A stretch of DNA of 38,284 nt. It comes from a virus. Lineage: Duplodnaviria; Heunggongvirae; Uroviricota; Caudoviricetes. The translations under genes and the position numbers were made by a program. Location: the IMG/VR virus record IMGVR_UViG_2778261592_000009, positions 1 to 38,284 of that record, one strand, 5' to 3'. Each line of letters opens with the position of its first letter. The stretch's first letter is position 1. The notes below the pieces were generated by a model that did no database searches, was not told the origin of the DNA, and was given only the letters and a program-made list of their open reading frames with translations. This document shows, piece after piece, positions 145-7,493 of this stretch.

Positions 145-522
145 TTAGTGATTCAGGCCGTTACCGCGTCCGTCGAGAAAAACTTCCACGAGCAAATCAC
201 GGGTATAAGTGCGCTCGATGCCGCGATGCAGATAAAGCCGTCCGCGTAAATTAGCTGATGCAGTCCAGGTACCATCTTTGTGTTTGACCAGCATGCCTGG
301 CATGACCGCACCTCGATTAACGGTCTGCGTTCCATAATGTTGATGCACCATAAAAACTCCTGCCCGTAAGCTGGGCTGCTGAACATATAAAGACTTCTGC
401 GCGTATTCAGGCGGTGGATGGCCGCCGGTTGTCATAACTAAGCCGCCTCGTTGAAGCGACTGAGGTATGAGGTGTTGAGTTGATTTCAGCTGGTCACACC
501 GACGTTCACGCGTCCGCTTCAC
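145..522 (-). CDS. putative N-like antitermination protein (Arg-rich N-terminus); maximal ORF 145..555 begins at TTG
   Basis: First gene downstream of the PL-like promoter on the leftward strand; GTG at 522..520 preceded by a G-rich RBS gives N-terminus MKRTRERR, resembling an arginine-rich RNA-binding motif; otherwise unrecognised. Confidence 0.4.
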
Positions 523-621
523 CCCTCGCACTCCCCGGAGCCTGCTGAAATTCAAGCTGCGGATCTAAGCGGTCATCGCAACGGTGAATCAGGTGATTGC
601 CGTATCGTTGTGTTGTTGCGA

Positions 622-680
622 CATGGTGATAATAGCTATTGCTATTGGTTGTATCAATACTTATTGCTATTGATTGATGT
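622..680 (-). promoter_or_regulatory. PL-like leftward early promoter with OL-like operator repeats
   Basis: On minus strand TTGATA (plus 657..652), 17-nt spacer, TATTAT (plus 634..629); overlapped by ATAGCTATTGCTATTGG and TTATTGCTATTGA motifs that recur left of cro. Confidence 0.5.
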
Positions 681-795
681 GTTTTGATATTAACTGTTTG
701 ATAGCAAAAAGAATTAATTTTGTGACTTGCATCGCATAGCGATAACTGAAGGGAGGATGTGGTGGTTTTTCGAACGGTTTGTGTGATGAGGGGAC

Positions 796-822
796 AAAAG
801 AAAACCCGGCACGGTGGCCGGG
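796..822 (-). terminator. rho-independent terminator closing the cI immunity operon
   Basis: CCCGGC(805..810)-ACGGTG-GCCGGG(817..822); on minus strand followed by TTTTCTTTTG; 4 nt after stop of gene 827..1204. Confidence 0.6.
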
Positions 823-826
823 ATTC

Positions 827-1204
827 TTACGCAGGTAGGTAAAGATATGATTGTGGTGGCTTAATATTACTACCTAGAGCAGAGATAGGAATTGGTTCTT
901 TATATCTTTCCACTTCACCAATTTTTATTGCGTAGGCCTTTTCTCTACCTGAATAATATGAGTCATAAAATTGCTTAGAAATACCTGCGTGTTTTTCCGT
1001 CTTTTTCCAAAGAGATTCCGGTTCGTCACTTAGTATTGATTCAATACGGAATTGGCCAACAACTTTACCTAATGGCATCGTGGCATAAATAACAACGGTG
1101 CTAATTTGCGGATTTTTGAATATACCTTTACGAAACTCGAACCGCTTTGTTCCGTTCAATATTTTTTCTGCAAACTCAGGCTTAATGGATAATAAAACTT
1201 TCAT
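827..1204 (-). CDS. ASCH-domain (PUA-like fold) protein, 125 aa
   Basis: ATG at 1204; pattern LLSIKPEFAEKILNGTKRFEFR ... AYAIKIGEV typical of ASCH proteins (by eye); AT-rich; overlaps upstream gene by 23 nt. Confidence 0.65.
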   Translation of the reverse strand: MKVLLSIKPEFAEKILNGTKRFEFRKGIFKNPQISTVVIYATMPLGKVVGQFRIESILSDEPESLWKKTEKHAGISKQFYDSYYSGREKAYAIKIGEVERYKEPIPISALGSNIKPPQSYLYLPA

Positions 1205-2255
1205 TTATCTTGCCTAACTCGATGATCTTTAAGAACTGCTCATTTGTGAGTTTAAAGTGACTCCATCGGAATGCACGCGAACCATTTAGCCCCACATGAT
1301 CTATTAAAATAGCACGATTGGGTCTCTTTGGCAAAGACAGATTGTATGTGAATCTTATAATGAAAGGGTATCGACGTTCTTTATAGATTTTTCTGAGTTC
1401 ATCTTCAGAAAATACGCTAAAACGAATACAATAGTCTACAAAACTATCTTCGCTTAAAAATTCAGAAATATTTTTTACGCTCTCAACTACACATAATGTA
1501 CTGGCTACAGAACGATAGCGAGCTGGCCCTTTTTTGTCTCCGGTTCTATAGATGACAATGATATCTCCTCTTTTCATTCCCATCACAGAACGCATTCCAC
1601 ATATGTAAATTTTATGAATGCTGTTAGCATGGGATATATCTTTGACAATATCTGGTGATTCATTTACAAGTTTTGAATCAGGGAATAGTCTAGTGTGATA
1701 TTCGGGATAAATCGCCAGTAAATATTTGTTGGCCCTTGATGTCATTATTCGAGGGTAATCTAATAAAATATCACCATAAGGCTCATGCAAAGACCTCGCA
1801 TATACAAACTCTTTCCCGTTATGTGTTTCTTTTTCACCATGAATGTAAAATCCGTACGTTTGGAAAAGTTTTATTAGATGGACGTGTTTGTCGAAAACAG
1901 TAACATAAATATCATCAGATTTTGATGAAAATGCATGGTCAAACGCTTTTTTTAGAAATCGTTGTCCGCGAAGGGTGCCTTTAGATTCAAATTTGAATGT
2001 TCCTATCTTTAGATGACGTCCTGGTGGGAGCGCTGGATTAATGTCATTTGCATCATCATTTTCTTTTAGATACATAAAACCTTCGATTTTATGCTTGTCA
2101 TCATAGAGCACATAAGCTGATTCTCCTTCTCTGGCTTTTTTTTCTAACCAAAGAGGAAACTCTTTATAATCTTTTTTTAAAGAGTCAAAAAATGGGTCAT
2201 TGTGATCAAAATCAGAGAATTTCTCATATTTTAAAGTATCCATTAAGTTCTCCAT
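1182..2255 (-). CDS. two-domain protein: N-terminal GNAT-like acetyltransferase region plus unassigned C-terminal domain (357 aa)
   Basis: ORF 1182..2255; alternative ATG at 2243 has GGAG 9 nt upstream; LRGQRFLKKAF and LFQTYGFYIHGE resemble GNAT motifs A/B (by eye only); AT-rich; 68 nt downstream of cI stop on same strand. Confidence 0.55.
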   Translation of the reverse strand: MENLMDTLKYEKFSDFDHNDPFFDSLKKDYKEFPLWLEKKAREGESAYVLYDDKHKIEGFMYLKENDDANDINPALPPGRHLKIGTFKFESKGTLRGQRFLKKAFDHAFSSKSDDIYVTVFDKHVHLIKLFQTYGFYIHGEKETHNGKEFVYARSLHEPYGDILLDYPRIMTSRANKYLLAIYPEYHTRLFPDSKLVNESPDIVKDISHANSIHKIYICGMRSVMGMKRGDIIVIYRTGDKKGPARYRSVASTLCVVESVKNISEFLSEDSFVDYCIRFSVFSEDELRKIYKERRYPFIIRFTYNLSLPKRPNRAILIDHVGLNGSRAFRWSHFKLTNEQFLKIIELGKINESFIIH

Positions 2256-2323
2256 TCTAAAATGAATAATTAAGTTGTTTTACTGAATGAGCACAATGCC
2301 CGGTTGATAATTTTTAATTGGTA

Positions 2324-3016
2324 CTATCCATGCTTCCTATACGTCTGCGGCATGCTCCCAATAACTTTCCCGAAGATAAATACCCGGTTCATCTCATCTT
2401 TCTCGATCGGGTCCCACGGTGAGTAGCTTTTGTTATCAGAGATAACCAGCAGCTTATCCTTCATCATTTGCAAGCGCTTTACATGGGCTGTGTCGTCGTA
2501 CAGAAACGCATAGATACCATCACCGTCGAAAGATTTAACCGTGATATCAACGAATAGAAGATCACCAGGTTCAATCGTTCCTGACATGCTGTCACCGCGT
2601 ACGTTAATGATGCGGATATTTTCTGCCTTCCTACCATCGAACATGTGACGAGCATCGTCAAACGAGTACTCAACCGAGCGTAGAACTTCTACAAACTCAC
2701 GGTTGATGACTCCCGGCCCGGCACTCACTTCTATATCAAGAACGTCAATCTTGAAGTATTTGGGATGGTTGGCAGTAGGCTTCCCTAATTGTTGACCGTC
2801 ATTTCTCATCGGGCCTATGCCTGATGAGAGCCACTCTGTTCGAACACCCAATGCATTAGCTATTTCAACAATTTTTGTTGAGCCGCGCGCGTTGCCGCTT
2901 GTCAGTCTCCAGATTGTGGGTTGAGCTACGCCAGACGCCTTTGCAAGAGCGCCTTGAGACATTCCAGATTGTTCCATCGCTAGGTTTAAGCGATCAGCAA
3001 GAGTTTCTTTTTTCAT
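2324..3016 (-). CDS. cI: CI-like prophage repressor (N-terminal HTH, C-terminal LexA/S24-type autopeptidase domain)
   Basis: HTH SQGALAKASGVAQPTIWRL; S24-like GDSMSGTIEPGDLLFVD and downstream VKRL; ATG at 3016 lies 8 nt from TATAAAT on the minus strand (leaderless, as lambda cI from PRM); maximal ORF to 3052 starts at TTG. Confidence 0.85.
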   Translation of the reverse strand: MKKETLADRLNLAMEQSGMSQGALAKASGVAQPTIWRLTSGNARGSTKIVEIANALGVRTEWLSSGIGPMRNDGQQLGKPTANHPKYFKIDVLDIEVSAGPGVINREFVEVLRSVEYSFDDARHMFDGRKAENIRIINVRGDSMSGTIEPGDLLFVDITVKSFDGDGIYAFLYDDTAHVKRLQMMKDKLLVISDNKSYSPWDPIEKDEMNRVFIFGKVIGSMPQTYRKHG

Positions 3017-3126
3017 AAGTTTTAATTTATACGCTTGCGTATTGATGGTCAAAACACGTTTTGCTATTGTTATAATTAATACGTATTGCTATTATTTATT
3101 CATTGTAATACCAATAGGAATTAATA
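3017..3126. promoter_or_regulatory. OR-like operator region with divergent PRM (leftward) and PR (rightward) promoters
   Basis: 110-bp intergenic region between divergent repressor and cro; TTGCTATTG and TATTGCTATTA motifs shared with 630..676; TATAAT at 3071..3076 (rightward); TATAAAT at 3031..3025 with TTGACC at 3052..3047 (leftward). Confidence 0.55.
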
Positions 3127-3354
3127 ATGACAAATCAAACCATTCAACTCGCAATCAGTATTACAGGTAGTCAAAAACGACTGGCAGATCTATGCGGTGT
3201 AGCCCAGCCCACTGTTTGGCGTTGGCTACACGGTGGCGGAATTGATGCCCGCTATGTAATGAAAATTGTCTCAGCCACTGGTGGAAAGATTAAACCAGCA
3301 GATATTCGTCCCGACCTCGCACCATTGTTTAACGCGAGTAATTCTGCCGCCTAA
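3127..3354 (+). CDS. cro: Cro-like HTH repressor (75 aa)
   Basis: Divergent from repressor gene; AGGA before ATG; HTH segment QKRLADLCGVAQPTVWRWL. Confidence 0.75.
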   Translation: MTNQTIQLAISITGSQKRLADLCGVAQPTVWRWLHGGGIDARYVMKIVSATGGKIKPADIRPDLAPLFNASNSAA

Positions 3355-3378
3355 TCTGCGGCGTTAACTGATAAGGCA

Positions 3379-3924
3379 ATGACTATGCAACCACTTACAT
3401 ACCAACAGACTAGCGGATTTAGCCCGACTGCGGTGATAAATCGTTCTCAAACAAAACAAGCTCCAGGCCACGAAAAAATCCGTGATGCCGTCCGCGCCTG
3501 GTCGGCTGCAGATAATCAGGATGTTGTTGCCGCACTCATTGTGAATGAGTATCGGGAGCAGGGCGGCGGCACCATCGATTTCCCTGATGATGTCAGCCGT
3601 GCACGCCAGAAGCTGTTCCGCTTCCTCGATAACAAATTCGATTCTGAAAAATACCGAAATAACGTGCGTGAACTGACCCCGGCAATTCTGGCGGTACTAC
3701 CGCTGGAATATCGCGGTTACCTGGTTGAGCAGGATAGCTTCATGACTCGGTTGGCTGAAATGGAAAAGGAACTCAGTGAGGCAAAACAGGCTGTCATTCT
3801 CAACGCACCACGCCACCAGAAACTGAAGGAAATGAGTGAAGGTATTGTGTCGATGTTTCGTGTGGACCCGGATCTGGCTGGTCCATTAATGGCGATGGTG
3901 ACCACCATGCTGGGGACAATATGA
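3379..3924 (+). CDS. CII-like / YdaT-family early regulatory protein (181 aa), tentative
   Basis: Sits between cro and the replication gene; AAGG RBS; family assignment positional. Confidence 0.5.
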   Translation: MTMQPLTYQQTSGFSPTAVINRSQTKQAPGHEKIRDAVRAWSAADNQDVVAALIVNEYREQGGGTIDFPDDVSRARQKLFRFLDNKFDSEKYRNNVRELTPAILAVLPLEYRGYLVEQDSFMTRLAEMEKELSEAKQAVILNAPRHQKLKEMSEGIVSMFRVDPDLAGPLMAMVTTMLGTI

Positions 3925-4940: not shown

Positions 4941-5638
4941 AAAACATCGCCGCACAGATGGTTAACTTTGACCGTGAGCAGATGCGCCGGATCGCCAACA
5001 ACATGCCGGAACAGTACGACGAAAAGCCGCAGGTACAACAGGTAGCGCAGATCATCAATGGTGTGTTCAGCCAGTTACTGGCAACTTTCCCGGCGAGCCT
5101 GGCTAACCGGGACCAGAACGAACTGAACGAAATCCGCCGCCAGTGGGTTCTGGCTTTCCGGGAAAACGGGATCACCACGATGGAACAGGTTAACGCAGGA
5201 ATGCGCGTAGCCCGTCGGCAGAATCGACCATTCCTGCCATCACCCGGGCAGTTTGTTGCCTGGTGCCGGGAAGAAGCATCCGTTACCGCCGGGCTGCCAA
5301 ACGCCAGCGAGCTGGTTGATATGGTTTACGAGTATTGCCGGAAACGTGGCCTGTATCCGGATGCAGAGTCTTATCCGTGGAAATCAAACGCGCACTACTG
5401 GCTGGTTACCAACCTGTATCAGAACATGCGGGGCAATGCGCTGACTGATGCGGAATTACGGCGCAAGGCTGCCGATGAACTGGCCTGTATGACAGCGCGA
5501 ATTAACCGTGGTGAGGCGATACCTGAACCAGTAAAACAACTTCCTGTTATGGGCGGGAGACCGCTTAATCGTGTTCAGGCTCTGGCGAAGATCGCAGAAA
5601 TCAAAGCGAAGTTTGGGCTGAAAGGAGCAAGTGTATGA
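4937..5638 (+). CDS. P: replication protein P (DnaB helicase loader), near-identical to lambda P
   Basis: 233 aa beginning MKNIAAQMVNFDREQMRRIANNMPEQYDEKPQVQQ, matching lambda P as recalled; ATGA overlap with O stop. Confidence 0.9.
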   Translation: MKNIAAQMVNFDREQMRRIANNMPEQYDEKPQVQQVAQIINGVFSQLLATFPASLANRDQNELNEIRRQWVLAFRENGITTMEQVNAGMRVARRQNRPFLPSPGQFVAWCREEASVTAGLPNASELVDMVYEYCRKRGLYPDAESYPWKSNAHYWLVTNLYQNMRGNALTDAELRRKAADELACMTARINRGEAIPEPVKQLPVMGGRPLNRVQALAKIAEIKAKFGLKGASV

Positions 5639-5808: not shown

Positions 5809-5954
5809 CGGTTAGCTACTCAGGATGATAGGGCGGGGCAAGTGAGTATGAAGCGGATTTTAAGGAATGCCATCAGAGTTTGGAAATAAAGTGGGTTTTC
5901 TAGTGGCAAGAGACTTGATAATATTTAGTCCTTTGAATCCAAGGAGATAGGGTT

Positions 5955-6449
5955 ATGAGAAAATTTATTTTAGCCTTTGTTATAAGTGCCTCGTTTACAG
6001 CAAATGCTGGTGTAGAGAAGTTAGGGCCGTGGATAACAAAGTCTGAGATAAATAAAATGACTGACCAGACTGACTTTGTGGCTCTTAATTTATCACCAGA
6101 TTCATATAACAAAGCAGGTACTGATCGTGCAACTTCACTGGTGTTGCGTTGTAGTGATAACAAAACAGATGCCTATTTATCATTCAATGATTATATGGGT
6201 TCGGACAACCCAAGAATTACAGTGCGGTTAGATGGCGGAAAGCCGGTCAAGAGTGTTTGGGGAGGTGGGGAAGGCGGTGATTCTGCATTTGCTCCACAAC
6301 CAATACAATTTATAAAGACCTTGGCTAAGCATAAAAAAGCTATTTTTGGGTTTGAACCTTATGGATCAACTATGCAAGTAGTTGAGTTTGACTTGTCTGA
6401 GATTGATAAGGTTGTGGAAAAAATTTCACAGTCTTGCAATTGGAAATGA
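5955..6449 (+). CDS. hypothetical secreted protein (moron), 164 aa with signal peptide
   Basis: AAGGAGA RBS; N-terminus MRKFILAFVISASFTANA; own terminator downstream; AT-rich relative to neighbours. Confidence 0.6.
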   Translation: MRKFILAFVISASFTANAGVEKLGPWITKSEINKMTDQTDFVALNLSPDSYNKAGTDRATSLVLRCSDNKTDAYLSFNDYMGSDNPRITVRLDGGKPVKSVWGGGEGGDSAFAPQPIQFIKTLAKHKKAIFGFEPYGSTMQVVEFDLSEIDKVVEKISQSCNWK

Positions 6450-6465
6450 CAAAAAAATTTCATAT

Positions 6466-6493
6466 GAACCCAGTTGGCGCTGGGTTTTTTATT
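6466..6493 (+). terminator. rho-independent terminator
   Basis: AACCCAG(6467..6473)-TTGGCG-CTGGGTT(6480..6486) followed by TTTTTTATTT. Confidence 0.6.
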
Positions 6494-7086
6494 TCAGTAG
6501 CCAATAATGCATTCAAAATCTCTTACTTGAGAAACGGCCTATTTGAGATTTCAGTCGTGGCAGGATGATCAGTTGATTCGAGTATTGACGCATTTGCGTT
6601 CGGAGCGATTACAGTAGATTGTAAATAATAATGAGAAACACATAGCCACATAGCCACCCCGTGGTATTGAAACCATATAATGTTGGATTTGAAAACAGAT
6701 CTTTTCCCATGTATTAATAACTACATCCCCGCGAGTAATTCAAAAAGGAGGGCCCAATTTTGTCCGAGTTTTTGTATTCCCCCGCATGCCGCTGCGGAGC
6801 ACTACATCTGAGTGTCTGACTAGGGGATAAAATTAGACTGGATAGTGAGAAGAAAGTGGCGCGCTAGGCTGTGCCGAGTGCTACCAGTACACCTTGGGGG
6901 TGTGCAGCTTTCGCCGAGACTGTAGTGGGTATCGGTTAATGCACGAAAAACCGAGAGGTCAGACAACCAATTTGCCGTAGGATTGTTTCCGGTGCGATAC
7001 CGGTCTACTAACTGAAAGCAATGCGAAAAAGCATAAACTCGGTCCTTCAGTCGCCCTACACACTATTTACTAAGAAGGGCTGAAGC

Positions 7087-7287
7087 ATGGATACAATTAT
7101 TACATGGATGGGAGATCGTCTGTTGGGGGGGACACAAAAATCCGATCTGCGGCAGATGGCGATCACTGGATTAACTTCCGCGATTTGTTCAACAATTTTG
7201 TACACTGAAAAATTAAAACATGGTGAGCCTATTAACCCAAACGAAGAAGAAAAACTTTATAGGCTTTGGTATGAAGGAAACGCTTGA
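7087..7287 (+). CDS. hypothetical small protein (66 aa)
   Basis: ORF with GAAGGG RBS about 7 nt upstream of ATG. Confidence 0.45.
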   Translation: MDTIITWMGDRLLGGTQKSDLRQMAITGLTSAICSTILYTEKLKHGEPINPNEEEKLYRLWYEGNA

Positions 7288-7493
7288 AAGAATAAAGCAC
7301 AATTAAAACCTTTGATTTGCGATAATCAACTTGCCATAATTAAGTAATCGGAGCCTGAACAACTCCGGTGACTTCTGCGCTAAACGGGGACGTTTATGCG
7401 CACATACAATCCAAACTATCTTCTCCTTTCACAGATGCAGAAATGCACCTGCAATTCTTTGCATCTAGCGTTTGACCTCTGCGGAGGTGAAGC

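Follow-up and report, generated by a model that had tools for sequence, protein, structure and literature searches.

Results

A catalogued two-gene module behind a phage repressor gene

We analyzed a viral DNA of 38,284 nucleotides (nt) belonging to the Caudoviricetes (IMG/VR record IMGVR_UViG_2778261592_000009, positions 1 to 38,284; this whole stretch is referred to as the window), in which two minus-strand genes, gevT and gevA, lie between a cI-like repressor gene and an intrinsic terminator. The original prediction, made from the sequence alone, had described them as a GNAT-like plus ASCH gene pair occupying the position of lambda rexA-rexB, and had put them forward as a candidate undescribed exclusion or toxin-type module. 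The two genes are as follows (aa, amino acids).

1182..2243, minus strand: gevT, 353 aa, with a GNAT N-terminal domain and an EVE/ASCH-type PUA-like C-terminal domain
827..1204, minus strand: gevA, a 125-aa stand-alone ASCH-domain protein, overlapping the 3′ end of gevT by 23 nt

The two open reading frames (ORFs) were recovered where the original prediction had placed them (357 aa at 1182..2255 and 125 aa at 827..1204, with the 23-nt overlap), and the spacings it gave, 68 nt between the cI stop (2324) and the first ATG of the large ORF and 4 nt between the gevA stop and the terminator hairpin, agree with the coordinates. The AT-rich character of the DNA was also borne out, with a GC content of 0.34-0.38 over 900-2300 compared with roughly 0.5 in the DNA on either side. 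The start of gevT is almost certainly the second ATG, at 2243, giving 353 aa, rather than the ATG at 2255 that opens the 357-aa ORF. The evidence is a GGAG 6 nt upstream of ATG 2243, the lack of a Shine-Dalgarno sequence before ATG 2255, and an alignment of 50 GevT homologs, nearly all of which begin at the methionine of ATG 2243. Given the 23-nt overlap, translational coupling of gevT and gevA is likely. Judged by their hidden Markov model E-values, by the 1,425 cluster representatives of the family and by the occurrence of the pair in 80 of 80 sampled genomes, both are real genes, far beyond chance. Neither Rfam families nor tRNA genes were found in scans of the complete window.

The novelty that had been claimed for the module did not survive comparison with PADLOC, GenBank and the comparative-genomics literature; the pair is a known, named and catalogued one. 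In a PADLOC scan GevT matched PDC-M11A (PDLC04419) with an E-value of 2.1e-133 (residues 6-356 against positions 10-356 of the 357 in the profile) and GevA matched PDC-M11B (PDLC04425) with an E-value of 6.8e-52, both matches being full-length and the genes adjacent and co-directional. PDC systems comprise 145 candidates nominated by their embedding in BREX, DISARM or type I restriction-modification (RM) loci (Payne et al. 2024, 10.1101/2024.01.29.577857), whereas the pair in the window sits in a prophage repressor operon.

The same architecture, a GNAT domain with a C-terminal EVE domain and an ASCH gene nearly always adjacent, was reported by Bell, Wolf and Koonin in 2020 (PMC7641849), and had been described earlier by Iyer et al. 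in 2013, as cited there. According to the 2020 study the GNAT-EVE plus ASCH combination is common in prophages of beta- and gamma-proteobacteria and was predicted to be a toxin-antitoxin system, no GNAT-EVE module having been characterized experimentally at that time (PMC7641849). The window pair resembles these (PIN)-GNAT-EVE plus ASCH operons in having the GNAT domain, the C-terminal EVE-type domain and the adjacent ASCH gene, and corresponds to the PIN-less GNAT-EVE form that Bell et al. found in gamma-proteobacterial prophages.

Finally, tblastn showed both proteins to be 100% identical (357 and 125 aa) to products annotated as ‘GevT toxin’ and ‘GevA antitoxin’ in phage PhiR47_2 (PV340567.1), and ‘Gev’ presumably stands for GNAT-EVE. 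In PhiR47_2 the pair likewise lies between cI and the PL-side genes, and the shared DNA has 98.6% identity; the N-terminal part of cI and the operator region, however, diverge beyond window position ~2880, which means that one cassette occurs with divergent cI and operator sequences. The region is also 99.8% identical to the lambdoid phages 4A7, Lambda_4C10, D2, 1W and 3W. A literature search found no paper on GevT/GevA experiments, target or mechanism, and found the PhiR phages only as the test panel of a Laub-lab preprint. The discovery was therefore anticipated by comparative genomics in 2013 and 2020, by PADLOC in 2023/2024 and by the 2025 GenBank annotation; what is added here are the limits of the cassette, the 80/80 pairing, the asymmetry between GevT and GevA, the fused relatives and the prevalence in E. 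coli.

GevT combines a GNAT domain with a PUA-like domain

GevT was modelled with AlphaFold2 (predicted local distance difference test score 87, predicted template modelling score 0.85) and the model was searched with Foldseek. Both this and profile comparison upheld the GNAT-like N-terminus that had been proposed by eye: a profile of the N-terminal 165 residues matched PaiA (1TIQ) with an E-value of 3.1e-5 over ~143 residues, and the top Foldseek matches were the GNATs 8OSP, PaiA 1TIQ, Naa50 and SpeG. GevT itself gave no Pfam match, and the homologs P0124 and P0142 pass the cutoff of Pfam PF00583. In the numbering of the 357-aa ORF the GNAT domain spans approximately residues 5-160 and the C-terminal domain approximately residues 166-357.

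The C-terminal part had been described as an unassigned domain of ~180 aa. At the level of sequence this stands, as no PDB profile match was found for the C-terminal domain, but the structure search resolves it as an EVE/ASCH-type PUA-like domain whose best structural match is ZmASCH, the ASCH protein of Zymomonas mobilis. As modelled, then, the C-terminal half of GevT has the fold of modified-base readers.

GevA is an ASCH protein related to ZmASCH

The assignment of the small protein to the ASCH domain was confirmed by Pfam (PF04266, E 2.5e-8). Its closest solved relative is ZmASCH (5GUQ/5GUS), found with an E-value of 8e-16 from the single sequence and 2e-19 from a 39-member family profile. 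Within the family K20/E23/R25, Y40, T42 and P117-Q118-S119 are invariant or nearly so. The residues Tyr47, Thr49, Gln127 and Ser128 of ZmASCH correspond to Y40, T42, Q118 and S119 of GevA, and its Lys53 aligns with Gly46, next to Lys47. ZmASCH has an affinity for single-stranded nucleic acids and is a Mg-dependent ribonuclease specific for single-stranded RNA; for binding and cleavage Tyr47, Lys53 and Ser128 of the basic cleft are important, the evidence on the cleft being mutagenesis for Y47 and S128 and modelling for T49 and Q127 (PMC5615036). Judging from the alignment, GevA keeps some of these nucleic-acid-binding cleft residues.

YqfB, the E. coli N4-acetylcytidine amidohydrolase that had been offered as a possible functional analogue of the small protein, proved a weak comparison. 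In a search of the PDB with the GevA-family profile only ZmASCH was found and YqfB was absent at E ≤ 1, so that YqfB and GevA share a fold at the superfamily level only. A comparison of the GevT C-terminal domain with GevA by hhalign gave a probability of 44% and an E-value of 2.4e-4, which is suggestive of the two being paralogous; both are structurally closest to ZmASCH. In contrast to gevA, the ZmASCH gene is an orphan: the 375-aa gene upstream of it is unrelated to GevT, which rules out an origin of ZmASCH from a GevT-type operon.

GevT occurs with GevA throughout the family

We sampled 80 GevT loci from Gammaproteobacteria, Bacteroidota, Firmicutes, Verrucomicrobia, Acidobacteria, Campylobacterota and others. 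Each of them has a GevA homolog, which in 77 of the 80 lies directly downstream, on the same strand and with a short overlap. There is no conserved third gene upstream (AAA_17 occurs in 5/74 loci and S24 repressors in 3/74), the genes at this position being otherwise unrelated from locus to locus. Some neighbors are RM, SoFic or mad genes. Among the 74 upstream neighbors there is also one Mom-family (DNA modification) gene, immediately upstream of its GevT locus.

The family as a whole amounts to 1,425 cluster representatives at 50% identity, drawn from many bacterial phyla and an archaeal virus. In complete E. coli genomes the cassette was found in 275 of 5,426 (~5%) at ≥ 99% identity, and among the matches listed it is single-copy, chromosomal and beside a repressor. 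All phage carriers of GevT/GevA are temperate.

The association is not symmetrical. GevA is encoded in each of the 16 phage records that have GevT, whereas GevA-type ASCH proteins were found without GevT in 18 further phage records and in Z. mobilis (the ZmASCH gene, at 5001-5447 of its stretch); the temperate phages with GevA only include Streptococcus Javan phages, 315.4, phiNIH1.1, Oenococcus phages, Funu1 and psiM2. A first protein never seen without the second, and a second that sometimes stands by itself, is what one would expect of a toxin-antidote pair. The lone occurrences also argue for an activity of the GevA-type proteins of their own, and the orphans may mimic an antitoxin or may act on RNA as enzymes in their own right.

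Several relatives carry additional or fused domains. In P0124 a ThsB-like TIR domain is fused to GNAT-EVE. About a dozen GevT relatives are ~615 aa long, and those scanned (P0203, P0204 and P0233) carry an extra N-terminal ASCH domain, as does the 473-aa P0221. P0186 is a PDC-M11A protein with a GevA-type ASCH domain fused to its C-terminus, showing 36% identity over full-length GevA. Relatives of ~500 aa have an N-terminal extension of ~150 aa for which no Pfam or PDB sequence match was obtained, and its identity as PIN (after Bell et al. 2020) was supported here solely by an ‘LLDTNIII’ motif recognized by eye.

The cassette occupies a cargo slot in the repressor operon

The other features of the operon and its surroundings are listed below.

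2324..3016, minus strand: cI-like repressor (helix-turn-helix plus S24 peptidase), first gene of the operon; Pfam Peptidase_S24, E 1.5e-18, plus HTH_3
823..2323, minus strand: swappable cargo cassette, AT-rich, between the cI stop codon and the backbone terminator
805..822, minus strand: intrinsic terminator, CCCGGC-loop-GCCGGG, a 6-bp all-GC hairpin at 822..805 followed by the T-run TTTTCTTTTG
3024..3052, minus strand: PRM-like promoter, TTGACC-17-TAAATT, from a consensus scan; presumed promoter of cI-gevT-gevA in the lysogen
629..657, minus strand: PL-like promoter, TTGATA-17-TATTAT, 10/12 matches, from a consensus scan; outer edge of the immunity region

The repressor is 230 aa long, read from ATG 3016 and not from the TTG of a 242-aa ORF; NC_049946 annotates a CI-like repressor of 693 nt. 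Blastn homology to the sibling phages PhiR5_1 and Perceval, which carry other cargo, stops at window position 822 and restarts at 2324/2325, and because homology breaks at these points we take 823-2323 as the swappable unit. In PhiR5_1 the slot (1648-3221 of its stretch) holds HipA/HipD, which match the PADLOC candidate PDC-M66A/B. In Perceval (632-2182 of its stretch) it holds a 340-aa protein and a 168-aa protein annotated as transmembrane, neither of which had a Pfam or PADLOC match. The interval from cI to the terminator is a precise cargo hotspot in lambdoid phages.

The hairpin at 805..822 is the sole terminator-like site within 500-3400 and is kept in the sibling phages with different cargo, i.e. 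it belongs to the phage backbone. It is the functional counterpart of the terminator of the lambda immunity operon. Repeated operator-like motifs, TTGCTATTG and CAATACnnTATTG, read directly from the sequence, surround the PL-like promoter and mark OL. From the position of the PRM-like site, transcription is expected to begin on or beside the cI ATG, so that cI would be leaderless, as it is in lambda. Since promoter-like matches in this region are no commoner than chance (8 against 9.1 expected in shuffled sequence), the assignment of 3024..3052 as PRM is by position only. For the same reason we make no claim for an extra gevA promoter inside gevT (e.g. at 1334-1306), such sites being no commoner than in shuffled sequence.

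Between cI and gevT the consensus and terminator scans detected neither a promoter-like nor a terminator-like site, and the cI promoter should for this reason read through into gevT-gevA in lysogens. In lambda, rexA-rexB lie downstream of cI and upstream of a terminator, inside OL/PL. The rexAB-like position that had been proposed for the window pair is thus matched exactly, with the cassette lying between the cI stop and the backbone terminator and PL/OL beyond. The proposed rexAB-like transcriptional logic holds as far as position and signals go, with co-transcription with cI predicted from the absence of an intervening promoter or terminator. The analogy is exact in position and is positional only: there is no sequence relationship to RexAB, and the PADLOC scan at E ≤ 1 gave only PDC-M11 models. 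RexB is a membrane protein, whereas GevA has no match to a membrane-protein family in Pfam or PADLOC.

Proposed function of GevT and GevA

From these data it appears probable, though by no means assured, that GevT/GevA is a toxin-antitoxin or abortive-infection module expressed in the lysogen from the repressor operon of a lambdoid E. coli prophage. GevT would be a growth-arresting toxin. Its PUA-like domain would dock on a nucleic acid, the likeliest candidates being a modified RNA, be it tRNA or another, and modified phage DNA, and the GNAT domain would then acetylate the docked target or its cargo. GevA, translated with GevT from one mRNA by coupling, would keep GevT harmless by binding it, by competing for the same ligand as the PUA-like domain or by processing the same nucleic acid. 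The lysogen would gain exclusion of other phages of the abortive-infection type, addiction to the prophage, or both. The exclusion or toxin-type role put forward in the original prediction is a reasonable one. An action of GevA on nucleic acid is favored because the ZmASCH-type cleft is conserved and because orphan GevA-type proteins exist, and functional coupling of the two proteins is suggested by the natural fusion P0186. The flavor of defense comes from the TIR fusion, the origin of PDC-M11 in defense loci, the RM, SoFic and mad neighbors and the presence of HipA/HipD in the sibling slot.

A number of points weigh against this interpretation. The terms toxin and antitoxin go back to a GenBank product name for which no paper was found, and the PDC systems are described by the PADLOC authors as unvalidated (10.1101/2024.01.29.577857). 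GevA, found alone elsewhere, may be an independent enzyme rather than a dedicated antitoxin, and fused forms are unusual for a classical toxin-antitoxin system with a labile antitoxin. The P0186 fusion is known from one cluster representative, and a frameshift artefact where two genes overlap could account for it. Read-through from cI, too, is deduced from a lack of signals.

The GNAT domain is itself atypical. Aligned to PaiA, GevT has K-x-x-L-x-G in place of Q/R-x-x-G-x-G/A, and a conserved phenylalanine (F131) stands at the position of the PaiA motif-B tyrosine, with an invariant tyrosine three residues on. The motif-B tyrosine is the catalytic residue in many GNATs. Because these motifs deviate from the canonical ones, the catalytic competence of GevT is assumed, and acetyltransferase activity is best called plausible.

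Nor is there specific similarity to the known GNAT toxins: no TacT, AtaT, KacT or ItaT chain appeared in the PDB profile search at E ≤ 1 or in the first 50 Foldseek matches. The original prediction had drawn an analogy with TacT and AtaT, which turned out to be weak, the likeness being at the level of the fold only. The module does resemble TacAT, AtaRT, KacAT and ItaRT in that a GNAT-fold protein is the predicted toxic partner of two genes. Unlike these type II toxins, however, GevT has two domains and 353 aa, and its nearest GNATs are of the PaiA/SpeG type and N-alpha-acetyltransferases. The partner differs as well. In systems of the TacAT/AtaRT type a ribbon-helix-helix/DUF1778 antitoxin is encoded upstream, whereas GevA is an ASCH protein encoded downstream of GevT.

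Alternative explanations

A more specific mechanism can be framed, which we regard as possible but hold with considerable doubt, in which GevT is a nucleic-acid-guided acetyltransferase that reads a modified base in host tRNA or hypermodified phage DNA and acetylates the nucleic acid itself or the aminoacyl group it carries, while GevA, as a paralogous PUA-like protein with an RNA-binding or RNase cleft of its own, neutralizes GevT through the same nucleic acid and not by binding the toxin. Were this so, the pair would embody a new toxin-antitoxin and immunity mechanism run from a prophage repressor operon, and an acetyltransferase aimed by a modified-base reader would link the reading of RNA or DNA modifications to abortive infection. 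A scheme that goes back to the original prediction, with GevA as an eraser, seems unlikely. Here GevT would write an acetyl mark such as N4-acetylcytidine in RNA and a YqfB-like GevA would remove it, an enzymatic neutralization comparable to that of DarT/DarG. It is not favored because GevA has no specific relationship to YqfB: the sole PDB match of the family profile is ZmASCH (E 2e-19), YqfB being absent at E ≤ 1, the conserved cleft residues match some of those for binding of single-stranded RNA or DNA and for RNA cleavage in ZmASCH and not a deacetylase site, and a deacetylase role would be without known precedent in the ASCH subgroup of GevA.

The pair could instead serve addiction alone, stabilizing the prophage or its cargo slot by post-segregational killing with no protection against phages. 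The toxin-antitoxin-like asymmetry and the tight gevT-gevA coupling are in keeping with this, a place in the repressor operon couples expression to lysogeny, and HipA/HipD, an alternative cargo of the slot, is another toxin-antitoxin-like pair. We nevertheless consider it improbable as the whole explanation, since the family also occurs outside prophages beside RM and other defense genes and was nominated by its embedding in defense loci, and the TIR-fused relative points to immunity; moreover, addiction and defense can coexist. Least probable of all, in our judgment, is a non-toxic modification system by which GevT and GevA mark DNA or RNA for the benefit of the phage, for example through anti-restriction or a reprogramming of translation. 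Such a role was proposed by Iyer et al. in 2013, as reported in PMC7641849, EVE and ASCH folds are typical partners of base-modifying enzymes, and a Mom-family gene adjoins one GevT locus. Expression with cI in the lysogen, and not with the lytic genes, is however ill-suited to protecting infecting phage DNA, the absence of GevT without GevA suggests that GevT is harmful alone, and the GenBank depositors name the pair toxin and antitoxin.

The pair is a textbook lysogenic-conversion cargo in the lambda rexAB slot. The slot itself, being defined (823-2323, with a common terminator and alternative cargos), is minable for further defense genes expressed in lysogens.

Other features of the window

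On the PL side the first sizeable ORF is 145-555 (minus strand, 136 aa from a TTG), which has no Pfam match. It is called Kil in sibling phages, where its length varies. Lambda has the N antiterminator gene between PL and kil, and the sibling-phage annotations show no N-like antiterminator gene in this interval. At 3379-3924 (plus strand) the ‘cII-like activator’ of related phages matches the Pfam family YdaT_toxin (PF06254) with an E-value of 5e-30.

Downstream of ren, the gene at 5955-6449 (plus strand) looks like a second cargo gene. It encodes a 164-aa protein with a signal-peptide-like N-terminus and a match to Pfam VasI (type VI secretion, E 5e-6). The AT-rich DNA around it (~5850-6530, ~680 bp) has no megablast match among 50,697 phage records, whereas the flanking DNA does match. 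The adjoining ~1 kb, 6450-7490, has no ORF of at least 70 aa on either strand and no Rfam match; it is partly conserved (94%) in the phages Turner and IdasGreatGrand, whose annotations show several small hypothetical proteins there.

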